Notes: generated from the sequence alone by a model not told the origin. A stretch of 64,000 nucleotides of DNA from Vicinamibacterales bacterium (GCA_035534615.1 DATLRO010000068.1:3432-67431), one strand, 5' to 3'; positions 11,386 to 63,052 are shown, numbered from the stretch's first letter. Translations and numbers: made by a program.

Positions 11386-14217
11386 CTATTCTTCCAGCGC
11401 CAGCCTGCCGAAGAGCGGCTGTCCCGTGCGGGCGGCGTAGAAGCCGAAGCAGGTGATGCCGACGGCGAGCAGCAGGGCGATATTGCCCGACAGCGCCCAC
11501 CAGGCTCCGGGGGAGCGCGACAACGGCACCGAGGAGAGCAGGTTGTCGAAGAAGAGCGCCACGGTCACCGTGAGCAGACCGAAGCGGAACACGGCGACCG
11601 TGATCAGCAGGATCACCACCACGCCGACGAGGGCGACGGGCCACCCGTTGCTGATGTAGGCGCCGCTGTTGGAGGCCACCGTCACGATTGCCACGACGAG
11701 GGCAATGGCCAGCCAGGCGCGCCGCACCAGGAGCCGCAGGATGACGAAGAAGAGCGCCAGCAGCAGCGCGCTCTCCAGCGCGCTGTAGGCGACCTGCACC
11801 GCAGCGAGCGGCAGGGCGGCGGAGTGGGCCAGCAGATTCACCTGGTCGCCCAGGGGCGGGGTTCCCGCTTTCGTACCGCTCAGCGCCGGCGCGAGTCCCC
11901 GGGCCACTTCCGTCAACAGGAGCACGACGCCCAGGGCGGCGCCGGCGAGGATGTCGTGGCCGACCCGCGGATCGCGCAGGCGACCCGACATGAGGCGGCT
12001 CCAGCCCAGCAGGCCGTCCGGCCAGTAGCGGCGGGCGTAGGGCTCGATGGCGACGTACATCACCCAGACCTGGGCCACCTGCAGCAGGGCGATGCCGACG
12101 GCGACCAGGAGATGCTGCAGTTCGACGTACGGCGACGGCGTGTGGTGGGCGGCGAACAGCCAGCCGACCGTGATGCCGCCAAACAGCGCGAGGGTCAGTC
12201 GTGTGGCGGCGCGCCAGTCGGCACGGCGGGCGCGCACGTGCCGGTACGCAAGCAGCGCCGCGCCGAAGAGCGACAGGTTCCAGACCATCAGGTTGAAGAG
12301 ACCCGAGAGAAACTGCGCCGCGGACTGCCGGGCCGGCTCCGGCGGTTTCATCCACGGCCCGATGACGGAAAAGGCGGTCGGGCGGCCGCGGTAGGCGGCG
12401 GCTTCCACGCGCACCGTCACGCCGGGCCGATCGCCGAGCGGCCCTTCCCAGGCCTGGCGCACGTCGGCGAACGCCGGCGGCGTCCATTCGGGCGCCACCG
12501 GATGGAAGGCCGCCAGGTCCAGGCCGGCCGCGGTGAACAGCGGCTTCCACTGCGGGGCCGGCGCCGGCCCCGTGTCGGGCTCGAACGCGGGTGGCACGGC
12601 CTGGAACTCGACCAGGCGGCCCCGCGTGTCCGTGACGACGGTCTGCATGCCGGACGTGGTGGCCGGGGGATCGGTCAGTGAAATGTTCGACGTCGGCCCA
12701 CTGGGCGTCATCTGCTGCGGGCTGGTCCGGTACCAGAAGAGGAGGGCCGGCGGCTCGTCGCCGCGCAGGAGGTTCCACCATCCGGTCTGCCCGCTCGTGG
12801 TCCGAACCCAGGCCAGATTGGCCGACGGAATCTGGAAGTTGGACGCCGCGTCGGCCGGCGTCCCGTGGTAGCCGAACGACGCGGTCATCTGCTGAATCCG
12901 GTCGATCAGCACCGCAGGCGGCTTGTCGAGCGGCACGAGCGAGGGAAGCGACGCGCGCGGCCCGAGGACCGCGAAGGCCGCCAGCACGGCCAGCGAGGCG
13001 GCCGTCATCGCCAGCGCGCGGCCGAGCGGCATGGCCGGGCTCTCGCCGGCGGCGATGAGCAGCTCGGGCGACGGCGTCTCGCCGGCGGCGAGCGCCGCGG
13101 CGAGCGGATCGGCGCCCGGCATCGCGGCGGCGACGGCGAGCGCCGATGCCGGCCGCCGCGGCGGATCCTGTTCGAGGCACCGGAGGATGACGCGCTCGAT
13201 GGCCGGGTCCAGATCGGGGACGACCGCGCTCGGCACCGGGCGGCTGCCGCTCTCGTGCAGGGCGACGAGCTCGTGCAGCGATTTGGCCTCGTGCACGCGC
13301 CGGCCCGTGAAGATCTCGAACAGCACGAGCCCGAGGGCGTAGAGGTCGCTGGCGACCGATGCCGGCTCGCGCCTCAGCTGCTCCGGCGCCATGTACTGCG
13401 GCGTGCCGGCAAGCCCCTCCTCGCGTTCGCCGTCCATGGCCGCGAGGCCGAAGTCGGTGAGCCGCACGTTGCCGCGGCCGTCGATCATCACATTGGCCGG
13501 CTTCAGATCGCGGTGGAGCACGCCGCGCTCGTGCGCCGCGGCGAGGCCTGCGCACAGCTGCCGGGCCAGCTCGACGGCCTTATCCTGCGGCACCCGTCCG
13601 ATCCGGCGGAGCAGCGACGCGAGATCCTCGCCGTCGACGTACTCCATCGTAATGAACGGCCGGCCGTCGGCCTCGCCGAGGTCGTAGAGCCGGCAGACGT
13701 TCTTGTGCGACACCTGGCGGGCCACGCGCAGTTCCCCGTGGAACTGCGCCAGCCGCGCGGCGTCGTGTGCCACCTCTTCGGGGAGGAATTTCAGGGCGAC
13801 CGGCTGCCCCAGCGTCAGATCGTCGGCGCGGTAGACCTCGCCCATGCCGCCCCTGCCGAGCAGCGCGACCAGGCGGTAGCGTCCCGCCAGAATCGCGCCC
13901 GACTCGAAGCGGACGGTCGGCGGCCGGCGGTCGCCGGTGGACGCCGGCGTGACGCCCGGCGCGACGGTCCGGGTGGCGGCCGGGTCGTCGAGGCCGGGAG
14001 CGGACCCGGCCGCGGCCGGCGCGGGATCGACCGCGGCGCCGCACGATGGGCAGAACCGCGCGGCGGCCGGCCGGGCGGTGCCGCACGCGGGGCAACAGGG
14101 CACGGCGAGATTGTAGCGGAGATGTCCGGCGCCGCGCCCGCGCCGGAGAGCTCGGCCCTGCCGCCCCGTGCCGTCCGAAGGCGGGCACCGGCGGACGCGA
14201 CGCGTCCTCTTGCCCAC
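11386..14217 (-). CDS. Ser/Thr protein kinase with N-terminal zinc ribbon and large polytopic C-terminal membrane domain
   Basis: CPACG..CPSCG ribbon, GRGGMGEVY, HRDLKPANVM, DFGLA, GTPQYMAPE, then one TM segment, a ~300-aa segment and about 8 hydrophobic helices. The exact start is uncertain (GTG at 14217 or downstream). Confidence 0.85.
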   Translation of the reverse strand: MGKRTRRVRRCPPSDGTGRQGRALRRGRGAGHLRYNLAVPCCPACGTARPAAARFCPSCGAAVDPAPAAAGSAPGLDDPAATRTVAPGVTPASTGDRRPPTVRFESGAILAGRYRLVALLGRGGMGEVYRADDLTLGQPVALKFLPEEVAHDAARLAQFHGELRVARQVSHKNVCRLYDLGEADGRPFITMEYVDGEDLASLLRRIGRVPQDKAVELARQLCAGLAAAHERGVLHRDLKPANVMIDGRGNVRLTDFGLAAMDGEREEGLAGTPQYMAPEQLRREPASVASDLYALGLVLFEIFTGRRVHEAKSLHELVALHESGSRPVPSAVVPDLDPAIERVILRCLEQDPPRRPASALAVAAAMPGADPLAAALAAGETPSPELLIAAGESPAMPLGRALAMTAASLAVLAAFAVLGPRASLPSLVPLDKPPAVLIDRIQQMTASFGYHGTPADAASNFQIPSANLAWVRTTSGQTGWWNLLRGDEPPALLFWYRTSPQQMTPSGPTSNISLTDPPATTSGMQTVVTDTRGRLVEFQAVPPAFEPDTGPAPAPQWKPLFTAAGLDLAAFHPVAPEWTPPAFADVRQAWEGPLGDRPGVTVRVEAAAYRGRPTAFSVIGPWMKPPEPARQSAAQFLSGLFNLMVWNLSLFGAALLAYRHVRARRADWRAATRLTLALFGGITVGWLFAAHHTPSPYVELQHLLVAVGIALLQVAQVWVMYVAIEPYARRYWPDGLLGWSRLMSGRLRDPRVGHDILAGAALGVVLLLTEVARGLAPALSGTKAGTPPLGDQVNLLAHSAALPLAAVQVAYSALESALLLALFFVILRLLVRRAWLAIALVVAIVTVASNSGAYISNGWPVALVGVVVILLITVAVFRFGLLTVTVALFFDNLLSSVPLSRSPGAWWALSGNIALLLAVGITCFGFYAARTGQPLFGRLALEE

Positions 14218-14281: not shown

Positions 14282-14311
14282 TGGACTGGCTTCGGGAGTC
14301 ACTGCTATGAT
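14282..14311 (+). promoter_or_regulatory. candidate sigma70-type promoter upstream of the TPR/TRASH/BMC gene string
   Basis: TGGACT, 18 nt, TATGAT, about 95 nt upstream of the 14407 start. Motif match by eye only. Confidence 0.25.
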
Positions 14312-14406
14312 CGGGGCTTTCAGCGGGTGACAGCCCGGGTGCGCCGGTGCGTTCGCCGGGGCGCGGCGGGTCTCGAGACCTGAATCCGTCCGCGGCGAGC
14401 ATCTTT

Positions 14407-15069
14407 ATGAAGTCCGAATCGATTGTTTTCGGCCTTGCCGGCGTCTGTTTCGGCCTGATCGTCGGCTGGGTGATCGCGAACCAGCAGGTCCCGGGACGCC
14501 AGCCGGCCATCGCGGCCGCCAGCGCGTCGGCGTCGCAGCCGGCGCCGACCATGCCGGCGCAGGGGTCCGGCACGAGTGATCAGAGCACGAGCGCCAGCGG
14601 CGACCAGCCGGTCCCGCTCGACGCGAGCCGCGTGCAGGCGCTGACGGCCCAGGCGGCGCAGCACCCGAACGACGCCGGCCCGCGCATTCAGCTCGGCAAC
14701 ATGTACTTCGACGCCGAACAGTACCAGACCGCGATCAACTGGTACCAGCAGGCGCTCAAGCTGGCCCCGCGCGACGTCGACGTCAGCACCGACCTCGGCG
14801 TGTGCTTCTACTACACGAACCAGCCCGATCTCGCCCTGAAGCAGTTCAATTACTCCCTGTCGATCGATCCCCGGCACCTGAAGACGCTGTTGAACATCGG
14901 CGTCGTCCGCGCGTTCGGCAAGCAGGATCTGGAGGGCGCGGCCAGGGCGTGGCAGAAGCTGGTCGATATCGCGCCGAACAGTCCGGAGGGCCAGGCGGCG
15001 AAGAAGGCGCTGGAGAGCATGCGCCAGGCCCATCCTGGCCTCGGCACCGGCGGGGCGTCCGGCCCCTGA
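14407..15069 (+). CDS. TPR-repeat protein with N-terminal membrane anchor
   Basis: MKSESIVFGLAGVCFGLIVGWVIA TM segment, then TPR-like repeats (LGNMYFDAEQYQTAINWYQQALKLAP..). The ATG at 14407 is preferred over the 14347 track start. Confidence 0.7.
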   Translation: MKSESIVFGLAGVCFGLIVGWVIANQQVPGRQPAIAAASASASQPAPTMPAQGSGTSDQSTSASGDQPVPLDASRVQALTAQAAQHPNDAGPRIQLGNMYFDAEQYQTAINWYQQALKLAPRDVDVSTDLGVCFYYTNQPDLALKQFNYSLSIDPRHLKTLLNIGVVRAFGKQDLEGAARAWQKLVDIAPNSPEGQAAKKALESMRQAHPGLGTGGASGP

Positions 15070-15075
15070 GCCCCG

Positions 15076-15336
15076 ATGGTCCGGCTGCTGCTCCTGCTGC
15101 TGTTCCTGGTCTTCCTCGGGCGGGCCGTGTGGCGGTTCCTCCAGGGGGTCGTCGAGGGAGCGACGCGGCAGGGCGGGCGCCCGGGCACGCCGTCGCGCGG
15201 CGTCCAGATGGTCCGGGATCCGGTGTGCGGCACGTTCGTCGTGCCGGCCCGGGCGTACGCACTCGGCGAGGGCGATCGGCAGGTCTTCTTCTGTTCGGAA
15301 CGGTGCCGCGAGCAGTATCGCGCGGGAGCGCGGTGA
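15076..15336 (+). CDS. small membrane-anchored TRASH/YHS-like metal-binding domain protein
   Basis: Leu-rich TM segment, then DPVCGTFV..FFCSERCREQY, a Cys pattern typical of TRASH/YHS domains. Confidence 0.6.
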   Translation: MVRLLLLLLFLVFLGRAVWRFLQGVVEGATRQGGRPGTPSRGVQMVRDPVCGTFVVPARAYALGEGDRQVFFCSERCREQYRAGAR

Positions 15337-15354
15337 GCGGGTTGGGCAGGTCCG

Positions 15355-16221
15355 ATGGCTGAGCGGTCCGAAGCGCGCCTGCGCGCCGACATCGTCGAGA
15401 TCGGGCGGCGTCTCCACGAGCGGGGGTACGTCGCCTCGAACGACGGCAACATCAGCGCCCGGCTGGATGGCGCGCGCCTGCTGACGACCCCGAGAGGCGT
15501 GTCGAAGCGCGACATGACCCCCGACATGATGGTGGTCACGGATCTCGACGGGCGCAAGCTGGCCGGCGAGCGGACGGCCTCGTCGGAACTGCTGATGCAC
15601 CTCGAGGTCTACCGGAACCGGCCCGAGGTGGAGGCGGTCGTGCACGCGCATCCGCCCGCAGCCACGGGGTTCGCGGTGGCCGGCATCCCGCTGGACCGGG
15701 CGGTGCTCGCGGAAATCGTCACGACGCTCGGCAGCATTCCGATTGCGGCCTACGGCACGCCGTCGACGCAGGAACTGGCCGACGCGGTCCGCCAGTACAT
15801 CCGGGCGCACGACGGGCTGCTGCTGGCCAATCACGGCGCATTGACCGTCGGCGGCGATCTGTTCACCGCGTACTACAACATGGAGCGGGTCGAGCACTTC
15901 GCGCGCATCAGTCTGGTGGCGCGGCTGCTCGGGCGCGAGTATCTGCTGTCGCGCGAGGAAGTCGAGCGGCTGCAGGGCCTGCGCGGTGCGTACGGCGTGG
16001 CGGCTCCGGCGCCGATCTGCACGGACGGCAGCCAGGCGCCGGCCGCGGGCGAGGTCGCCAGCTGCCAGGTGATTCAGGCGCCGCCGGGGGGCGGCCTCCG
16101 GCTCGTGCCCGACGTCCCGGGGACGGCGGCCGGCGCGCCGCCGAGCGACGACACCGAAATTCGGTTAACATACCGCGAGCTGACGGCGCTCATCGAGGAC
16201 GCGGTCAGGAACCTGACATAA
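15355..16221 (+). CDS. class II (FucA/RhaD/AraD-family) aldolase with ~70-aa C-terminal extension
   Basis: [37 protein letters not shown] (metal His ligands). After about 215 aa comes a Pro/Gly/Ala linker and a terminal amphipathic helix, [19 protein letters not shown]. Confidence 0.9.
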
Positions 16222-16288
16222 TCCGCCTGCGCGTCGCGGGTGGCGGCCGGCGGCCGGCGTCAGCGCCGGCCATGGCCTGGAGGAGAGT

Positions 16289-16579
16289 ATGGGCGAGGCG
16301 CTCGGGATGATCGAGACGAAGGGACTTGTCGCGATGATCGAGGCGGCCGACGCCATGGTCAAGGCCGCGAAGGTCACGCTGGTGGGCTGGGAGAAGATCG
16401 GCGCCGGCTACGTCACGGCGCTCGTGCGCGGTGACGTCGCCGCCGTGAAGGCGGCGACCGACGCCGGGGCGGCCGCCGCCCGCCGCGTCGGCGAGCTCGT
16501 GTCGGTCCACGTCATTCCGCGCCCGCACGCGAGTCTCGAGGACACCCTGCCGATCGGCAGGTCGGGCGCCAAGAGCTAG
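16289..16579 (+). CDS. BMC-H shell protein (PF00936-type hexamer, PduA/EutM/CcmK-like)
   Basis: [34 protein letters not shown] pore loop, [28 protein letters not shown] before the ATG. Confidence 0.93.
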
Positions 16580-16603
16580 ACACGGGTTCCGATCGGCTCC
16601 CTC

Positions 16604-16873
16604 ATGATTCTGGCCAAAGTCGTCGGCACCGTGGTCGCGACCCGCAAAGATCCCCGCCTGGTCAGCCAGAAGCTGCTGGTCGCCCGACCGCTGGATCCGC
16701 GCGGCAAGCCGGAAGGCCACTACCTGGTCGCGGTCGACACCGTCGACGCCGGCTTCGGCGACATGGTGCTGATCGTCAACGGCAGCTCGGCGCGGATGGC
16801 GGCCGGCCTCAAGGACTGCCCGGTCGACGCCGCCATCGTCGGCGTCGTCGACACCGTCGAGCTCGACGAATAG
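16604..16873 (+). CDS. BMC-P vertex protein 1 (EutN/CcmL family, PF03319-type)
   Basis: MILAKVVGTVVATRKDPRLVSQKLLVARPLD..AVDTVDAG.GDMVLIV.GS.AR..VDAAIVGVVD. Confidence 0.9.
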   Translation: MILAKVVGTVVATRKDPRLVSQKLLVARPLDPRGKPEGHYLVAVDTVDAGFGDMVLIVNGSSARMAAGLKDCPVDAAIVGVVDTVELDE

Positions 16874-16886
16874 GGAAACGCCCGGC

Positions 16887-17165
16887 ATGCAGCTCGCGCG
16901 CGTCATCGGCGACGTGGTCACCACCAGGAAGGATCCGGCGCTGATCGGCCTGACCCTGCTGATCGTGCAGCCGCTCACGCCCGATCACCAGCCGATCGGC
17001 CGCGCGGTGATCGCCGCGGACACGGTCGGCGCCGGCGTGGGCGAAGAGGTGTTCTTCGTCCGGGGCAAAGAAGCCAGTTTCCCGTTCTTTCCCGCCGAGG
17101 TGCCCGTCGACGCGGGGATCGTCGGCATCATCGATTACTGGACCGTCGACGCCCCGCGTCCCTAG
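16887..17165 (+). CDS. BMC-P vertex protein 2 (EutN/CcmL family)
   Basis: MQLARVIGDVVTTRKDPALIGLTLLIVQPL..AADTVGAGVGEEVFFV.G..VDAGIVGIID. Confidence 0.9.
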   Translation: MQLARVIGDVVTTRKDPALIGLTLLIVQPLTPDHQPIGRAVIAADTVGAGVGEEVFFVRGKEASFPFFPAEVPVDAGIVGIIDYWTVDAPRP

Positions 17166-17177
17166 CCGGCCGCCGTC

Positions 17178-17474
17178 ATGCTGCTCGCCCGAGTCGTCGG
17201 CACCGTGGTCTCCACCCAGAAGCACCGGAAGTTCACCGGCGCCAAGCTGCTGCTCGTTCAGCCGCTGACGCTGGAGGAGACGCCCAGCGGCACGCCCGTG
17301 CTGGCGGTCGACGGGGTGGGCGCGGGCGTGCACGAGAAGGTGCTGATCGTCCTGGAAGGGCGGGCCGCCAGCGACGCCATCAGCCAGCGGGGCGCGCCGG
17401 TCGACGCCGCCATCGTCGGGATCGTGGACCACGTCGATCTGGGGACCGGCGCGGCTGCGGAGGCCGGCCGATGA
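17178..17474 (+). CDS. BMC-P vertex protein 3 (EutN/CcmL family)
   Basis: MLLARVVGTVVSTQKHRKFTGAKLLLVQPL..AVDGVGAGVHEKVLIV.EG..VDAAIVGIVD. Confidence 0.9.
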   Translation: MLLARVVGTVVSTQKHRKFTGAKLLLVQPLTLEETPSGTPVLAVDGVGAGVHEKVLIVLEGRAASDAISQRGAPVDAAIVGIVDHVDLGTGAAAEAGR

Positions 17475-17710
17475 CCGGCATGAGCGAGGAGGCGCTGCGC
17501 GCGCTCGTCCGCGACGTCGTGGCACGCGGCGCGGCGCAGGCCGGGGGCGCCGGCGGCTCGCTGGACACGACGGTCACGACCGTGGCGGCGGTGCTGGTGC
17601 ACGCCAGCCATCAGCGGTTCACGGCCCTGCCGCGCCCCGGCGACGCCTGTCTGATCGAGCCGGCCGTGCCGTGCACCCACTGCGGGTACTGCCAGTCGTA
17701 CGGCCACTGA
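17471..17710 (+). CDS. 79-aa Cys-rich protein with N-terminal amphipathic helix (putative encapsulated metal or Fe-S protein)
   Basis: The ATG overlaps the stop of BMC-P3 (ATGA). N-terminus EEALRALVRDVVARG, then a Gly/Ala linker. C-terminus C-x9-C-x2-C-x2-C (ACLIEPAVPCTHCGYCQSYGH). I recognise no family. Confidence 0.6.
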   Translation: MTGMSEEALRALVRDVVARGAAQAGGAGGSLDTTVTTVAAVLVHASHQRFTALPRPGDACLIEPAVPCTHCGYCQSYGH

Positions 17711-17725
17711 GCGACGCAAACGGTC

Positions 17726-18676
17726 ATGCCCAAACCAGCCCTGCTCGTCACGCGGCGGATTCCGGCGTCGGTGCTCGCCCGTCTCGAGCCGGTCTGCGAC
17801 ATCGATCTCTACACGGGCGACGCGGCCATCCCCCGCGGCGAGCTGCTCGAGCGCGTCCGCGGCAAGCAGGCGCTGATGTGCCTGCTGACCGATCGTATCG
17901 ACCGCGAGCTGCTCGAGGCGGGGCGCGACCTGCGGATCGTCGCGAACATCGCCGTCGGCTACAACAACGTCGACGTGGCCTCCGCGGCCGGGCGCGGCAT
18001 CATCGTCACCAACACGCCGGACGTGCTGACCGAGTCGGTGGCCGACTTCACCTGGGCGCTCATCCTCGCGCTGACCCGGCGCGTCTCGGAAGGCGAACGG
18101 GTGGTCCGCAGCGGCACGTGGAAGGGCTGGGCCCTCGACTTCATGCTGGGCACGGACGTCCGGGGCAAGCAGCTCGGGCTGATCGGCATGGGGCGGATCG
18201 CCCGGGCCGTCGCAGCGCGGGCGCCGGCGTTCGGCATGCGCGTGGCGTACGCCGACGAGCAGGCGGTCAGCGTGCCGGGTGCCGAGGCGATGTCGCTCGA
18301 TCGGCTGCTGACGACCTCGGACGTCGTGTCGCTGCACGTGCCGCTGACCGACGGCACCCGTCATCTGATCGACCGGCGGGCGCTGACCAGGATGAAGCGG
18401 TCCGCCTACCTGATCAACACGGCGCGCGGGCCGGTCGTCGACGAAGAGGCGCTCGCGTGGGCGCTCGGCCAGCATCTGATCGCCGGCGCCGCGCTGGACG
18501 TGTACGAGAACGAGCCGGCCATCCAGCCCGCCCTGATGACGATGGAACACGTGCTGCTGGTGCCGCACCTCGGCAGTGCCACGACCGAGACGCGGACGGC
18601 CATGGCGGATCTCGCGGCCAGCAACGTGCTGGCCGTTCTGGCGGGCAAGCCGGCGCTGACCGCCGTGCCGGCGTGA
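17726..18676 (+). CDS. D-isomer-specific 2-hydroxyacid dehydrogenase (glyoxylate/hydroxypyruvate reductase-like)
   Basis: VGYNNVDV, NTPDVLTESVADF, Rossmann GLIGMGRIARAVA, ..NTARG..VDE.AL, catalytic region LDVYENEP..PHLGSAT. Confidence 0.92.
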   Translation: MPKPALLVTRRIPASVLARLEPVCDIDLYTGDAAIPRGELLERVRGKQALMCLLTDRIDRELLEAGRDLRIVANIAVGYNNVDVASAAGRGIIVTNTPDVLTESVADFTWALILALTRRVSEGERVVRSGTWKGWALDFMLGTDVRGKQLGLIGMGRIARAVAARAPAFGMRVAYADEQAVSVPGAEAMSLDRLLTTSDVVSLHVPLTDGTRHLIDRRALTRMKRSAYLINTARGPVVDEEALAWALGQHLIAGAALDVYENEPAIQPALMTMEHVLLVPHLGSATTETRTAMADLAASNVLAVLAGKPALTAVPA

Positions 18677-58257: not shown

Positions 58258-59796
58258 CTACGTTCTCACCCCCGCATAATGCGCGACGATGGCGTCCACC
58301 AGATCCGGCACGGTGTAGCGGGCCGGCATGATGTCGGTCCGGATGCCGTACTCGGCCGCGGCGTCGGCGGTCACCGGGCCGATCGCCGCCACCAGCGTCG
58401 TCTGCAGCAGGTCGGCCACCTGCTCGGCGCCGATCTGCCGCACGAAGCTCCGGACGGTCGACGCGCTGGTGAACGTGACGACGTCGATCCGCCGGTCCAG
58501 CAGCATCCGGTAGAGATCCGGCTGGCCCTCGGCGTCCGGCTCGACCGGCAGCGTGCGGTAGGCCTTGACCTCGGTGACGTCCGCGCCGAGCCGGCGCAGC
58601 TCCTCGGCCAGCAGTTCGCGCGCGATGTCGGCGCGCGGGAGCAGAATCCGGCGCCCCGTGAGATCGCCGGTGGCGGCCAGCGCCTCGACGACCGCCTCGG
58701 CGCGGTACTCGGCCGGCGTCAGGTCGACCTTGAGGCCGAGCTGCGCGATCCGCGCGGCCGTCGCCGGTCCGATGGCGCACAGCCGTACGCCCTTCAGATC
58801 GCGCAGGTCGCCCGGTCCGGCCAGCAGGCGCTCGAAGAACCGCGCCACGCCGTTCGCGCTCGTGAACACGATCCAGTCGAACCCGCCGGCGCGGCGGCAC
58901 GCCTCGTCCAGCGGCGCCTCGTCGTCCGGAGGGACGATCCGGATGAGCGGGGCCTCGATGGTGTCCGCGCCGAAATCCTCCAGCAGTTCGACCAGCTCGC
59001 CCGCCTGCTCGCGCGGCCGCGTCACGGCGATGCGGCGCCCGAAGAGCGGGCGGGCGTCGAACCAGCGGAGATGGTCCCGCAGGCCGACCACGCGGCCGAC
59101 CACGAGCAGCGCCGGCCGGCGCTGGCCCGGCTGCGCGGCCGCGGCCGCGATGTCGGCGAGCGAGCCCTGGATCGTCTGCTGGCCCGCGAGGGTGCCGCTG
59201 TAGATGAGCGCGGCCGTTTCGTCCGGCGGCCGGCCGTGGGCGAGGAGCGCCTCGGCGATGCCCGGCAGCTGGTGCGCGCCCGCGTAGCAGGCGAGCGTGC
59301 CGTCCAGGCGGGCGAGGCTGTGCCAGTCGACCTCCGGCAGCGTCCGGCCTTCGCCTTCGTGTCCGCGAATCAGGGTGACCGTGTCCCCGCCGCCGGGGTG
59401 GCTCAGCGGAATGCCGGCATAGGCGGCCGCGCCCACGTCGGCAGGCACGCCGGGAATCACCTCGAAGCGGACGCCCTGTTCGTGCAGGAACAGCGCCTCC
59501 TCGCCGGTCGTCCCGAAAACGAACGGATCGCCCCACTTGAGGCGCGCCACCCGCCGGCCCTCGCCCGCCTTTTCCAGCAGGAGGTAGCAGATCGCTTCCT
59601 GATCGAGCGGCTGCGGCGCCGTCAGGCCGACGTCGATCAGCTCGGCGTCCGCGCGCGCTTCGCGCAGCAGCTTTGGATGGACGAGGTGATCGTGCAGCAC
59701 GACGTCGGCGGTCCGGAGGACGCGCAGGCCGCGTGCGGTGATGAGGTCCGGTGCGCCCGGGCCGGCGCCGATCAGAAATACCTGGGCGCCGCTCAC
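58258..59796 (-). CDS. fused uroporphyrinogen-III C-methyltransferase / uroporphyrinogen-III synthase
   Basis: N-terminal half [20 protein letters not shown] (CobA/SUMT). C-terminal half HemD-like. GTG start overlapping the hemC stop. Confidence 0.9.
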
Positions 59797-60770
59797 GGCT
59801 GCAGTCCTTCGATGGCCGCCTGCGCGCGCCGCACCTCGGCCAGCAGCTCGCCGGCGCCGTCCTTCAGCAGCGCCTCCGCCACCCGGGCCCCGAGGCCTTC
59901 CGGATCGTCCTTCGGCCCGCGCGCGCGGTGGTGCAGGGCGCGGGCGCCGTCGATCGACAGGACGACGGCCCGCAGGTCCAGGTCGTCGCCGGCGGCCTGC
60001 GCCAGCGCCCCGAGCGGCATCTGGCAGCCGCCGCCGAGCGCGCGGACGAGCGCCCGCTCGGCCGCCAGCGCCCGAGAAGTCACCGCATCGTCGATCGACG
60101 AGACCGCGGCGTGCGTGCGGCCGTCGCCCGCGCGGATCTCGACGGCGATGATCCCCTGGCCCGGCGCCGGGACGCAGGCGGAGGCCGGCAGGGGGGCGGT
60201 GATGCGGGAGGCGAATCCGAGCCGGTACAGGCCGGCGGCGGCCAGCACGAGGGCGTCGTGCTGGCCCTCGTCCAGCTTCCGGAGGCGGGTGTCGAGATTG
60301 CCGCGGACGCCGGCGAACTGCGCGTTCGGCGCGAGGCGGCGCAGCTGGGCCACGCGGCGGACGCTGCCGGTGCCGATGCGCGGCGCGCCTCCCAGCGCGG
60401 CGACGAGCGCGTCGAGCGTGGGCGACGCCGGCACGGCGGCCCCCGCCGGCAGCACCAGGGCATCGCGCGGGTCCTCGCGCGGCAGCACGGCCGCGATTGC
60501 CAGCCCGTCGGGCAGCACGGCCGGCATGTCCTTGCTGCTGTGCACCGCCAGGTCGATCCGGTCGCCGAGCAGCGCGTCTTCGAGCTCCTTGACGAACAGG
60601 CGCTTGCCGCCCACGTCGGCCAGCGGGGCGTCCTGCAGCCGGTCGCCGCTGGTCTGGATGATGACCACCTCGCAGGCCGGGCCGCCGGCCGCGGCGATGC
60701 GCGCCGCCACCGTCCGGGCCTGGTACCTGGCGAGCTGGCTGCCGCGCGTCCCCAGGCGCAGGCTACTCAT
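59793..60770 (-). CDS. hemC: hydroxymethylbilane synthase
   Basis: [27 protein letters not shown]. Confidence 0.95.
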
Positions 60771-62139
60771 CGTCCGCTCCCGGGAAGGCGCGGCTCCGTC
60801 CGGGGTAGCGCCGGGCGCGGTGTCGATCGGCCGGGTCCCCGGCCTCGTCCGGCGGCGTGGCGGCGCCGGCCCCGTCGTGGTCGAGGTCGAACAGGTGGCT
60901 GACCGCGTCGGCGTACAGCGTCATCGTCTCGGAGTCGGGCAACGCCTTGAGCTGCTCGGTCGGGCCGATGAGGAGTTTCTCGACCAGCAGCCGCGTGATC
61001 TCGTCGACGCGGGCGCGCGCGTCGGGCGGCAGGCCGGCGAGCTTCGGCTCGAGCCGCTGCAGCTCCGAGCGCCGGATCGCCTCGAACCGCTGCCGCAGGG
61101 CGACGACGGTCGGCACGGCGCTGCGCGCGCGCAGCCACGCGGCGAACCGGCCGACTTCCTCGTCCACGATCGTCTCGGCGCTCGTCACTTCCCCTGACCG
61201 CCGCGACAGGTTCTCCTGCACGATCGCCTGCAGGTCGTCGATGTTGTAGAGGAACACCTGCTCGAGGCTGCCGGTCGTGGGATCGACGTCGCGCGGCAGC
61301 GCGATGTCGATGATGAACAGCGGCCGGTTCCGGTGCGGCCCCATCGCACCGGCCACCTGCGCGCGGTCGAGGATCGGCGTGGCCGAGCCGGTCGCCGTCA
61401 CGACGATGTCGGCCTCCGTCAGGGCCGCGGGCAGCGCCTCCCACGGCACGCCCACCGCCCCGTCGATCTGGTCGACCAGGGCGCTGGCGTGCGCGGCGGT
61501 CCGGCTCGTGATGACGATCTCGCGGATGCCCTGGCTCTTCAGATGAAGGGCGGTCAGCTTGCCCATCTCTCCCGCGCCGATCACCAGCACGCGCCGCCCT
61601 TTCAGATCCCCGAAGATCTTCCGGGCCAGCGAGACCGCGGCGTAACTGACCGAGACGGCCCCCTCCGCCAGCCCCGTCTCGGAGCGCACGCGCTTGCCGA
61701 CGGCGAACGAGGAATGGAACAGGCGTGTCAGGAGCGGGCCGGCGACCTGCTCCTCGGCGGCGGTGGCGAACGCCTCCTTCACCTGGCCCAGAATCTGCGG
61801 CTCGCCGACCACGAGGGAATCGAGGCCGGATGCGACCCGGAAGAGGTGCCGCACGGCGTCGGCGTCGAGCTGGTCGTAGAGATGCGGCGACAGTTCGGCG
61901 GCCGGCACGCCGTGGAACGCGCTCATGAACGCCACCAGATCCGCCTTCGCGCGCTCGGGGCTCTCGCACGCGACGTACAGCTCCGCCCGGTTACAGGTCG
62001 ACAGGACCACCGCCTCGCGGCTGGCGGGCCGCGCCGCGAGGGCCTGGAGCGCCGGCTTCAGGCGCGTCGAGAAATCGATCCGCTCCCGCATCTCGATGGG
62101 GGCCGTCCGATAACTGACGCCGACAAGCAGGATCTGCAT
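60763..62139 (-). CDS. hemA: glutamyl-tRNA reductase
   Basis: VGVSYRTAP, LSTCNRAELY, GAGEMG. ATG at 62139 inside the longer track ORF. Confidence 0.93.
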   Translation of the reverse strand: MQILLVGVSYRTAPIEMRERIDFSTRLKPALQALAARPASREAVVLSTCNRAELYVACESPERAKADLVAFMSAFHGVPAAELSPHLYDQLDADAVRHLFRVASGLDSLVVGEPQILGQVKEAFATAAEEQVAGPLLTRLFHSSFAVGKRVRSETGLAEGAVSVSYAAVSLARKIFGDLKGRRVLVIGAGEMGKLTALHLKSQGIREIVITSRTAAHASALVDQIDGAVGVPWEALPAALTEADIVVTATGSATPILDRAQVAGAMGPHRNRPLFIIDIALPRDVDPTTGSLEQVFLYNIDDLQAIVQENLSRRSGEVTSAETIVDEEVGRFAAWLRARSAVPTVVALRQRFEAIRRSELQRLEPKLAGLPPDARARVDEITRLLVEKLLIGPTEQLKALPDSETMTLYADAVSHLFDLDHDGAGAATPPDEAGDPADRHRARRYPGRSRAFPGADDE

Positions 62140-62198
62140 GCGTTGAGAGGGCCCGGGGGCGGCCGCCGCCGGAGCGGCCGCGCCGGGGGGCCCGCCGT

Positions 62199-63023
62199 TC
62201 AGAAGGTGTGGCTCGTGGTCAGGAAGTAGCTGATCGGCACGAGATTCACCAGCACGATCACGAATCCGATGATGGAGAGCCAGGCGGTGCGCCGGCCGCT
62301 CCACCCCGACATGTGCAGCGCCACGACCTCGAACGAATAGACCGCCCAGCAGACCAGCGCGGCGAAGATCTTCGGATCGCCGAGCGACATCGCCTGCACG
62401 CGCGGGTCGGTCGGATCGATGATCCGCGCCTGCGCGGCCCAGATGGTCCCCACGATGATGCCGACCGTCAGGAAGATCCAGCCGACGACGACCGCGCGGC
62501 GGTTCATGACGTCGAGCACCTGCAGCGACGGCAGGCGCTCGTAGAAGACGCCCAGATGCTTGGCCTTGATTTCCTTGAACAGGAGCATGTACGTGACGCC
62601 GATCACGCACGCCAGCGCGAAGCTCGCGTAGGCGAACAGCAGCGACGACACGTGCACGCCGAACCACGGGCTGTGAAGGACCGCCGCCTGATCTTCGTGG
62701 CCCGGGTGCAGCGCCGGGATCGCCTGCATCACGACGATCAGCGGCAGGATGAACACGCCCATCGCCCGCTCGCCGGTGGTCACCTCGGTGTACAGGTAGG
62801 CGAGGGCCAGCAGCCAGACGAAGGTCGACACGGCCGGCGAGGCCCCCGCCACGGGAATGTGTCCGCTCGTGACGGTCTGCATCCCGATGATGAACGTGTG
62901 CGCCAGCGCCCCCGCCATCAGCAGCATCGTGGCGGCCCGGCCGGCGCCCGCCGAGCGGCGCGCGAAGTGGCGCCCGTAGGCCAGGGCGGCCGCCGCATAG
63001 AGCATCAGGGGGACGACATTCAT
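62199..63023 (-). CDS. CcsA-like cytochrome c assembly family membrane protein (HemX-type, upstream of hemA)
   Basis: Eight hydrophobic helices, degenerate Trp-rich region (GTIWAAQA..DPK). Its position upstream of hemA matches the Bacillus hemAXCDBL-type cluster. Confidence 0.8.
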   Translation of the reverse strand: MNVVPLMLYAAAALAYGRHFARRSAGAGRAATMLLMAGALAHTFIIGMQTVTSGHIPVAGASPAVSTFVWLLALAYLYTEVTTGERAMGVFILPLIVVMQAIPALHPGHEDQAAVLHSPWFGVHVSSLLFAYASFALACVIGVTYMLLFKEIKAKHLGVFYERLPSLQVLDVMNRRAVVVGWIFLTVGIIVGTIWAAQARIIDPTDPRVQAMSLGDPKIFAALVCWAVYSFEVVALHMSGWSGRRTAWLSIIGFVIVLVNLVPISYFLTTSHTF

Positions 63024-63052
63024 CCGATGGTCACCTCGAGCCGCGCCCGGCG

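Follow-up and report, generated by a model that had tools for sequence, protein, structure and literature searches.

Sequence-based assignment of an aldolase-containing microcompartment locus of a Vicinamibacterales bacterium to the ACI type

The analysed stretch of DNA, hereafter the window, comprised 64,000 nucleotides from an uncultured Vicinamibacterales (Acidobacteriota) bacterium. Judged by its gene content, it carries a real bacterial microcompartment (BMC) main locus. Seven plus-strand open reading frames (ORFs) were confirmed at positions 15355-18676 by an ORF check of the window, with gaps of 67, 24, 13, 12, -4 (an ATGA overlap) and 15 bp between successive ORFs. The gene identities named in the first-pass annotation, including the start codon of the 79-aa protein overlapping the preceding gene, were confirmed by ORFs and Pfam, and the profiles it had proposed for checking (PF00936, PF03319, PF00596 and PF00389/PF02826) all matched significantly. 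That annotation ended the unit at these seven genes, whereas the conserved unit also includes two upstream genes, for a TPR protein and an 86-aa protein (s86), and spans window positions 14407-18676. The features are:

14282..14311, plus strand: promoter-like site TGGACT-18-TATGAT, with TG; consensus match only, 5' of the TPR gene
14407..15069, plus strand: TPR protein, 220 aa, with N-terminal hydrophobic anchor (TPR Pfam matches; public gene call)
15076..15336, plus strand: s86, YHS-like protein, 86 aa, with N-terminal hydrophobic helix and YHS/TRASH-like C-terminal domain
15355..16221, plus strand: class II aldolase, 288 aa (PF00596, 5.8e-50)
16289..16579, plus strand: BMC-H hexamer shell protein, EutM-like, 96 aa (PF00936, 2.8e-30)
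16604..16873, plus strand: BMC-P pentamer paralogue 1, 89 aa (PF03319, 4.6e-32)
16887..17165, plus strand: BMC-P pentamer paralogue 2, 92 aa (PF03319, 9.8e-28)
17178..17474, plus strand: BMC-P pentamer paralogue 3, 98 aa (PF03319, 4e-28)
17471..17710, plus strand: s79, Cys-rich protein, 79 aa (without Pfam or NCBIfam match)
17726..18676, plus strand: D-isomer 2-hydroxyacid dehydrogenase (HADH), GyaR/glyoxylate-hydroxypyruvate reductase-like, 316 aa (PF02826, 5.8e-57; PF00389, 1e-29)

Two promoter-like sites were observed, with 0.2 expected in shuffles, and the site at 14282..14311 is a possible start of the transcription unit. The longest ORF of the TPR gene started at position 14347. No terminator-like site separated genes within the block, and the Rfam search gave no match. 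The TPR gene was located directly 5' of the block in 52/52 full-length related loci, and s86 was present in 94% of the related loci. Insertions of more than 500 bp occurred between TPR and s86 in 0/67 loci, compared with 28/63 between pdxJ and TPR. The linkage of TPR and s86 could nevertheless be phylogenetic inertia, because the block was surrounded by the same housekeeping genes in relatives and the whole neighbourhood was syntenic. The C-terminal domain of s86 held three conserved cysteines (DPvCG...FCS..C). The protein s86 matched the NCBIfam model PP0621_fam weakly, as did its orthologues PF04945. It had 920 homologues, many of which carried the JGI name 'YHS domain-containing protein'.

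Relatives of s79 were present in 292 species-level GTDB genomes. Among the best 80 of these, 75 were labelled as Acidobacteriota, Vicinamibacterales or other Acidobacteriota. The remaining five were MAGs labelled Bifidobacteriaceae, Betaproteobacteria or Acidimicrobiia, which were probably mis-binned since they held the same gene block at similar identity. The gene order TPR-s86-aldolase-H-P-P-P-s79-HADH-nth was found in 57/87 loci, and most of the others were truncated or frameshifted. In the nearest relative, MFD02416.bin.2.81, aldolase and HADH were 80% and 84% identical, respectively. All block genes were under purifying selection, with a median dN/dS of 0.06 for BMC-H, measured at a dS of about 0.7, and 0.17-0.36 for the others. 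The conservation of the block was far above chance.

BMC-H was 74% identical to EutM of E. coli, contained KAAK and PRPH interface motifs and showed 85-97% identity across relatives. The three BMC-P paralogues were 45-49% identical to one another, and orthologues of paralogue 1 showed 74-87% identity. The facets of the shell would be formed by the EutM-like BMC-H and its vertices by the three divergent BMC-P paralogues. No shell genes beyond these four were found elsewhere in the window.

The aldolase consisted of a FucA-like core (residues 1-214), an extension with the invariant C222 and C237, and a C-terminal amphipathic helix. FucA/DrdA-type aldolases ranked first in a PDB profile search, and the fold family was shared with E. 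coli FucA (PDB 1FUA) and the Bacillus/Streptococcus FucA/DrdA-type enzymes 6BTD and 4C24. Identity to E. coli FucA was 29%. The three-His zinc ligands, the catalytic Glu, the phosphate-binding Asn/Thr/Gly/Ser-Ser and the C-terminal Tyr were shared with FucA; in the alignment, N32, T45, G48, S76 and S77 corresponded to FucA N29, T43, G44, S71 and S72, and E78, H97, H99, H160 and Y213 to FucA E73, H92, H94, H155 and Y209. Unlike FucA, the protein carried a 74-aa C-terminal extension with the two invariant cysteines and a predicted encapsulation peptide (EP). FucA Y113, F131 and F206, which we take from the FucA mutagenesis literature to line the aldehyde pocket, were replaced by E120, P136 and R210, invariant in the aligned family, whereas the Tyr and Phe were kept in the closest solved homologues. 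The substitutions suggest that the aldehyde is more likely small and polar, of the glycolaldehyde/glyoxylate type, than L-lactaldehyde, a reading that depends on these three positions and on an alignment that was gapped around Y113. The best NCBIfam match was the OtnC decarboxylase with 127.6 bits against a cut-off of 250; FucA models reached 116 bits, and every NCBIfam aldolase match was far under its curated cut-off. JGI labelled the orthologues as L-fuculose-phosphate aldolase.

The EP of the aldolase was predicted as the helix of residues 273-286 (nt 16171-16212), following a disordered linker. The hydrophobic moment of the protein peaked at 273-287 and the tail alignment showed a conserved C-terminal segment behind a variable linker; the AF2 model of the aldolase was poor, with a mean pLDDT of 61. 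An amphipathic helix of the pattern L-x-A-L-I/V-x-D-x-V was common to the C-terminus of the aldolase and the N-terminus of s79, and these were the only two occurrences of an EP-like motif in the six-frame translation of the window. In s79, the EP helix (residues 6-25, AF2 pLDDT about 90) was followed by a disordered linker and a C-terminal knuckle, C60-x7-C68-x2-C71-x2-C74. H70 and H79 were invariant beside these four cysteines. Searches for s79 relatives yielded 202 homologues and 268 clusters at 50% identity, a family of small proteins with 56-135 aa among the members listed. The motif resembled the structural-zinc lobe of the MDR alcohol dehydrogenase 5vm2 over a short similarity (E 0.0036), and Foldseek with s79 returned no match. 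Most likely, s79 would be a zinc-binding, less likely an Fe-S-binding, lumenal adaptor or scaffold.

HADH scored 349.5 bits against the NCBIfam glyoxylate reductase, under the cut-off of 455, and aligned end to end with the glyoxylate reductase structures 6bii, 5aov and 2dbq (1e-78 to 1e-80). Relative to these GyaR structures it had no N- or C-terminal extension, and it was without an EP-like motif. It adjoined the block in about 93% of related loci, with insertions 3' but not 5' of it, and was cleanly absent from seven otherwise intact loci. It is predicted to act most likely outside the shell on a pathway-linked 2-oxo or 2-hydroxy acid, and glyoxylate/glycolate or hydroxypyruvate/glycerate are candidate substrate pairs.

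Genes for aldehyde dehydrogenase (AldDH), phosphotransacylase (PTAC), alcohol dehydrogenase (ADH), RuBisCO and carbonic anhydrase were absent from the 64-kb window in Pfam searches of essentially all sizeable ORFs, and E. coli EutE, EutG and EutD gave no tblastn match to the window even at E<5, which upholds the corresponding statement of the first-pass annotation. AldDH, PTAC and ADH were also absent within 10 kb of 86 related main loci. A canonical metabolosome, with signature enzyme, PF00171 AldDH, PF06130 PTAC and ADH in one locus, was rejected on the missing companions, and a carboxysome on the absence of RuBisCO and carbonic anhydrase Pfam families from the window. BMCs of the PVM type (Planctomycetes/Verrucomicrobia, fucose/rhamnose) share a class II aldolase as aldehyde-generating signature enzyme and multiple BMC-P genes with the locus. 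In PVM loci, AldDH, PTAC, acetate kinase and lactaldehyde reductase are encoded together with the shell genes. The PVM type was rejected because these four enzymes were absent from the locus and the FucA residues Y113, F131 and F206 were not conserved, so that the aldehyde pocket departs from FucA.

By its sequence features, the locus belongs to the already catalogued ACI type of soil Acidobacteria (Sutter, Melnicki, Schulz, Woyke and Kerfeld 2021, Nat Commun 12:3809, Supplementary Data 2; PMC8217296), whose entry comprises 125 loci, from Acidobacteria only and mainly from Subdivisions 4 and 6. An Acidobacteria-restricted, aldolase-containing BMC type had been mentioned in the first-pass annotation, and the ACI entry is that type. 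Shared with it were a PF00596 aldolase with C-terminal EP, a PF00389/PF02826 HADH, an adjacent BMC-P triplet, one BMC-H, a Cys protein of about 80 aa with N-terminal EP, the absence of an AldDH from the main locus and the Acidobacteria-restricted range (Subdivision 6, Vicinamibacterales). [quoted passage not shown] The entry describes three proteins of unknown function, one with three conserved His, whereas here one such protein lay between the shell genes and HADH, with the YHS-like protein upstream. It states three conserved Cys, while s79 had four invariant ones. The constant TPR/YHS-like linkage and the occasional loss of HADH do not form part of the ACI description as given in that entry. 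The earlier statement that the locus lacks known signature enzymes was too strong, as the catalogue lists the PF00596 aldolase as the signature enzyme of PVM and PVM-like BMCs and also in GRM5. The BMC-P triplet is likewise characteristic of the HO/MIC3 type of Haliangium ochraceum. The catalogue finds the closest counterparts of the ACI aldolase in HO/MIC3, and a relative of the ACI AldDH in MIC3 only. By their description, HO loci are set apart from the window's locus by a BMC-T(dp), an AldDH within the locus and their occurrence in Myxobacteria.

The catalogue entry places the ACI AldDH consistently on a satellite locus, in most ACI genomes, and gives it an EP close to the C-terminus with a domain of about 50 aa behind it (PMC8217296). 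Satellites were searched for with a degenerate DNA pattern for acylating-AldDH motifs, which yielded high-GC contigs. The satellites on them consisted of two genes, a BMC-H 74-84% identical to that of the window and, directly following, a PF00171 protein of 580-600 aa. At the C-terminus, most of the complete AldDHs carried an amphipathic helix (GISAEALSRRIDQFL) followed by a linker and a domain of about 50 aa, FVCEDDVR...TIVTPAARD. Clusters of the satellite BMC-H at 90% identity included NCBI proteins named Vicinamibacterales bacterium, and the gene pair was also found in the NCBI assemblies GCA_035537875.1 and GCA_035557875.1. Satellite pair and main loci occurred in the same metagenome samples (ERZ25039586 and JGI 3300066187). 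Their co-occurrence in one genome is taken from the catalogue (PMC8217296); here, it was seen at the level of clade and samples. An AldDH elsewhere was found for the Vicinamibacterales clade, not for the window's own genome, of which a 71-kb contig was available.

Our preferred explanation, with a probability of roughly 0.6, is that the ACI main locus encodes an aldolase-initiated, PVM-like metabolosome with a satellite-encoded AldDH. The aldolase would cleave a ketose-1-phosphate inside the shell to DHAP and a reactive aldehyde, more likely a small and polar one than L-lactaldehyde judging from the pocket residues. The EP-bearing acylating AldDH, which related Vicinamibacterales encode next to a second BMC-H in a remote two-gene satellite, would then oxidise the aldehyde. 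Neither PTAC nor alcohol dehydrogenase was found in any main or satellite locus, the satellites holding AldDH only, so the model leaves cofactor and CoA recycling unaccounted for.

A rival explanation is a compartment for L-fuculose- or L-rhamnulose-phosphate, functionally equivalent to PVM and releasing lactaldehyde. The JGI label of the orthologues fits such a compartment, and the catalogue, in which the PF00596-containing PVM, PVM-like and GRM5 types process fuculose- or rhamnulose-phosphate, proposes a role in carbohydrate degradation (PMC8217296). The lactaldehyde compartment is unlikely given that the three pocket residues of FucA are lost, the closest solved homologues retaining Tyr and Phe, and that genes for fucose/rhamnose isomerase, kinase, transporter or lactaldehyde reductase were absent from the loci inspected. 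The same substitutions to Glu, Pro and Arg would suit a charged group. Together with the acid substrates of the adjoining HADH and the NCBIfam ranking, in which 3-oxo-tetronate 4-phosphate decarboxylase came first and a ribulose-5-P 4-epimerase subfamily next, they are consistent with a decarboxylase, epimerase or dehydratase, for example OtnC-like, that handles an acid-sugar phosphate without aldehyde release. This was considered distinctly unlikely, as the scores were far under the curated cut-offs with FucA models nearly equal, aldolases led the PDB profile search, tetronate kinase or isomerase genes were absent nearby and the EP-bearing AldDH of the system points to an aldehyde intermediate.

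The first-pass annotation had proposed a self-sufficient minimal organelle that confines the aldolase product with HADH as the only NAD(P)-dependent enzyme and without AldDH. The lack of AldDH, PTAC and ADH in the window and around related loci, the close linkage of HADH to the block and the detection of AldDH in the clade rather than in the window's own genome agree with it. The proposal is quite improbable and its inference unsupported, because HADH lacks both an EP-like extension and such a motif and is missing from the seven intact loci, and because the satellite AldDH is present in the clade, on Vicinamibacterales contigs here and in most ACI genomes of the catalogue; moreover, the substrates of the HADH family are 2-oxo or 2-hydroxy acids, not aldehydes. 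Reduction of a formerly larger BMC locus to a decaying or non-functional remnant would explain the compactness, the absence of BMC-T and of core enzymes nearby and the housekeeping surroundings. All ORFs were intact, however, the order was kept across hundreds of species and the BMC-H dN/dS was low, and a remnant is effectively refuted by these conservation data.

The locus is of a kind already known, the ACI type catalogued in 2021. As a whole, it is doubtful that ACI compartments represent a distinct chemistry rather than fucose/rhamnose-type metabolosomes. Under such a chemistry, the aldolase, with E120, P136 and R210 lending its aldehyde pocket a polar or charged character, may release a glycolaldehyde- or glyoxylate-type product. 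The EP-tagged, free-standing Cys4/His2 metal knuckle may serve as a lumenal scaffold or as a redox or metal cofactor, and the membrane-anchored TPR and YHS-like partners may tether or metal-load the organelle. Some lineages, possibly including that of the window, might work without AldDH or without HADH.

Seven co-directional open reading frames were found at 15355–18676, where the first-pass annotation had placed them. The window is part of a public metagenome contig of 70.9 kb (ENA ERZ27256799, k141_681020). A Pfam search matched six of their products to PF00596, PF00936, PF03319 (three times) and PF02826/PF00389, and the 79-aa protein had no match.

Genes of the seven-gene block, with Pfam E-values
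15355–16221, + strand, class II aldolase, 288 aa (PF00596, 5.8e-50)
16289–16579, + strand, shell protein BMC-H, 96 aa (PF00936, 2.8e-30)
16604–16873, + strand, shell protein BMC-P (P1), 89 aa (PF03319, 4.6e-32)
16887–17165, + strand, shell protein BMC-P (P2), 92 aa (PF03319, 9.8e-28)
17178–17474, + strand, shell protein BMC-P (P3), 98 aa (PF03319, 4e-28)
17471–17710, + strand, Cys-rich protein s79, 79 aa (no Pfam match)
17726–18676, + strand, 2-hydroxyacid dehydrogenase HADH, 316 aa (PF02826, 5.8e-57; PF00389, 1e-29)

The s79 ATG and the P3 stop codon overlapped. Housekeeping genes filled the rest of the window: ftsH, folP, glmM, pdxJ, a Ser/Thr kinase, nth, PPIase, queE/queC, ABC transporter and pyrimidine genes, uppS, cdsA, dxr, rseP and hemA/C/D. 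In tblastn searches of the 64 kb, E. coli EutE, EutG and EutD retrieved no aldehyde dehydrogenase (AldDH), Fe-ADH or Pta even at E<5, and EutM and EutN retrieved no shell genes other than the four listed. An Rfam scan found no riboswitch upstream of or within the locus. A haem biosynthesis cluster (hemA, hemC and fused cobA/hemD) with a cytochrome c assembly gene lay at the far end of the window (58258–63030, − strand) and has no relation to the microcompartment locus.

The locus was placed in a published classification of microcompartment loci. The sections of that catalogue on the Acidobacteria type (ACI) describe 125 loci, exclusively from Acidobacteria and mainly from Subdivisions 4 and 6 (Sutter et al. 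2021, PMC8217296). According to the same sections, the ACI main locus holds a PF00596 aldolase that bears an encapsulation peptide (EP) at its C-terminus, a hydroxyacid dehydrogenase (PF00389/PF02826), a BMC-P triplet and one or more BMC-H, and its proteins of unknown function include one of about 80 aa that has an EP at the N-terminus as well as conserved cysteines (PMC8217296). All main-locus features that could be compared were present in the window. Judged by its sequence features, the locus belongs to the ACI type, and the satellite feature of that type, a distant gene pair of BMC-H and AldDH, was found for the clade. A class II aldolase is also used by PVM, but membership in PVM was rejected because its companion enzymes were missing from the window locus and the aldehyde pocket differed.

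The s79 protein had 202 homologues in a set of 5.8 billion proteins, with lengths of 69–88 aa among the 120 listed. In a scan with one genome per GTDB species, relatives were present in 292 genomes, and 75 of the best 80 of these were labelled Acidobacteriota, Vicinamibacterales or another Acidobacteriota name. The closest relative among those listed, MAG MFD02416.bin.2.81, shared 80% identity in the aldolase, 94% in BMC-H, 84% in HADH and 86% in nth. Five MAGs with the labels Bifidobacteriaceae, Betaproteobacteria or Acidimicrobiia (loci L012, L059, L076, L077 and L082) carried a Vicinamibacterales-type block at typical identities, most likely because contigs were mis-binned in these public MAGs. 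The order TPR, 86-aa protein, aldolase, BMC-H, P1, P2, P3, s79, HADH and nth was complete in 57 of 87 loci, and most of the others were interrupted by contig ends or frameshifts. Because the whole neighbourhood was syntenic in 83–100% of 52 full-length loci (folP-dac-ybbR-glmM-pdxJ upstream, nth-PPIase-DUF72-queE-queC-alaX downstream), gene order indicates that the locus is an old, vertically inherited core-genome feature and no island.

Insertions of more than 500 bp were present at the junction of pdxJ and the TPR gene in 28 of 63 loci and at the junction of HADH and nth in 7 of 70, but at every junction between the TPR gene and HADH in only 0 or 1 loci. Since the insertions fall outside this block, the predicted functional unit is widened from seven to nine genes (14407–18676). 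The products of the two added genes, directly 5′ of the aldolase gene (14407–15336), are a TPR protein anchored in the membrane and a YHS/TRASH-like protein of 86 aa (s86) with three conserved cysteines; no insertion was seen between this pair and the BMC genes. Between pdxJ and the TPR gene, the window carried a gene (11386–14217, − strand) for a Ser/Thr protein kinase of 905 aa with numerous transmembrane segments; it is a lineage-specific insertion beside the block, because it was found at this position in just 3 of 52 related loci. Median dN/dS against relatives was 0.06 for BMC-H, 0.17 for P1 and 0.27–0.48 for the other genes, as rough NG86 values from a genome with very high GC3.

The N-terminal helix predicted for s79 (residues 6–25, pLDDT about 90) led into a disordered linker. 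The motif L-x-A-L-I/V-x-D-x-V was common to the helices of s79 and the aldolase and was absent elsewhere in the six-frame translation of the 64 kb. Within the window, putative targeting helices are confined to two proteins, the aldolase and s79 with its putative metal knuckle. The C-terminal motif of s79, C60-LIEPAV-x-C68-x-H70-C71-G-Y-C74-...-G78-H79 (residues 60–79, window 17648–17707), was invariant. The s79 model had no Foldseek match in the PDB, and the only database similarity of the knuckle was to an MDR alcohol dehydrogenase, in its structural-zinc lobe (PDB 5vm2, IEPGVPCGHCRYC, E 0.0036). The fourth Cys lies downstream in that lobe, whereas that of s79 lies upstream. Binding of Zn is favoured for s79, and Fe-S is a less likely candidate.

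The aldolase core (residues 1–214) aligned over its full length with FucA/DrdA-type aldolases. A 74-aa extension past the C-terminal Tyr-Gly of FucA comprised conserved APAPIC and CQV...RLV elements, a variable linker and the terminal helix. C222 in APAPIC and C237 in CQV were invariant (residues 221–238, window 16015–16068, between the catalytic core and the EP) and could make up a metal site or a disulfide, perhaps jointly with s79. The YHS/TRASH-like protein, s79 and these cysteines give the locus a putative metal-binding theme. The Zn ligands, catalytic Glu, phosphate-binding residues and C-terminal Tyr of E. coli FucA (N29, T43, G44, S71, S72, E73, H92, H94, H155 and Y209) were kept as N32, T45, G48, S76, S77, E78, H97, H99, H160 and Y213. 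FucA Y113, F131 and F206, which we take from the mutagenesis literature to line the aldehyde pocket, corresponded in this alignment, gapped at Y113, to E120, P136 and R210. The three replacements were invariant among aligned family members; the closest solved homologues of the aldolase retain Tyr and Phe. Because of these replacements, a polar C2/C3 aldehyde may be a likelier product than L-lactaldehyde. This suggestion is weak owing to the gap at Y113 and to NCBIfam aldolase-family matches that all lay far under their cut-offs, a decarboxylase model being marginally best.

The first-pass annotation had read the locus as a minimal organelle lacking AldDH, in which the aldolase product is confined with HADH as the single NAD(P)-dependent enzyme. 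Metagenome contigs were scanned with a high-GC degenerate DNA pattern for AldDH (G-x-G-N-x-P, 21 codons, F-D-N-[N/G]), validated on E. coli eutE. About 15–20 of 120 pattern matches formed a distinct class on contigs of 58–73% GC, where a BMC-H 73–84% identical to that of the window adjoined, usually directly upstream, a gene for a 580–600-aa PF00171 protein with 29–33% identity to EutE. In most of the complete examples, this protein ended in an amphipathic helix (e.g. GISAEALSRRIDQFLASRGF), a Pro/Ala-rich linker and a conserved domain of about 50 aa, FVCE(D/E)DVRxAxxxGRKxxxxERxIVTPAARDxGE, which had no match in Pfam or the PDB. The catalogue sections on ACI place the AldDH consistently on a satellite locus and describe it as having an EP near the C-terminus followed by a domain of unknown function of about 50 aa (PMC8217296). 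By sequence, the pair is the published ACI satellite. Homology of the tail domain to s79 was rejected: among 1.84 billion representatives, s79 had 268 clusters, of which the best 150 were all 56–135 aa long and none was fused to a larger domain. Homology to s86 was likewise rejected, with only proteins of about 82–110 aa among the 120 matches listed.

The satellite neighbourhood was constant in many assemblies (contigs L099, L102, L125, L154, L208 and L215–L240): T2SS-E, T2SS-F, a protein of about 295 aa on the opposite strand, SLT and SLT-LysM, where the pair had a fixed address, flanked by the genes for type II secretion (T2SS-F) and for lytic transglycosylase (SLT/LysM). The 90%-identity clusters of satellite BMC-H proteins included NCBI entries named 'Vicinamibacterales bacterium'. 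The pair was present in NCBI assemblies GCA_035537875.1 and GCA_035557875.1 and in samples that also gave main loci (ERZ25039586 and JGI 3300066187); it was seen in marine (Tara) contigs too. Neither DATLLJ01 nor DATMDI01, the WGS prefixes of the NCBI MAGs with the satellite, was among the best 80 of the 292 main-locus genomes. Co-occurrence was thus observed here at the sample level, and the presence of main and satellite loci in one genome follows the catalogue sections.

Residues 3–309 of HADH aligned with glyoxylate reductases from archaea (1e-78 to 1e-80), and the protein had no terminal extension. It was cleanly missing from related loci L012, L049, L053, L056, L061 and L093, where nth followed s79 within about 60–135 bp, and from L072, which was cut off upstream; one locus without HADH sits on a complete 5.1-Mb chromosome (OY969918.1). 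Some lineages dispense with HADH, which probably acts outside the shell. With a satellite BMC-H and AldDH recovered for the clade and an HADH that is dispensable and has no EP, the minimal organelle was not supported.

Shell genes, two cargo proteins with putative EPs, conserved catalytic residues and, for the clade, a satellite AldDH were identified. The compartment would be an aldolase-initiated metabolosome. A ketose-1-phosphate would be split in the lumen into DHAP and an aldehyde, which the acylating AldDH would oxidise. A glycolaldehyde or glyoxylate-type product would provide the neighbouring GyaR-like enzyme with a function outside the shell. Neither PTAC nor ADH was seen that would account for recycling of the cofactor.

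The finding is real but already known in kind, and the window adds no new kind of system. Small additions are the nine-gene unit, the similarity between s79 and a structural-zinc lobe, two invariant cysteines in the aldolase tail, the dispensability of HADH, a changed aldehyde pocket and a satellite with a fixed place in the genome. The literature searched contained no experiments that characterise ACI. In soil, the Vicinamibacterales and related Acidobacteria belong to the most abundant bacteria and, to our knowledge, their sole microcompartment type has no assigned substrate. The analysis narrows the substrate panel and the constructs for an experimental assignment of ACI function.
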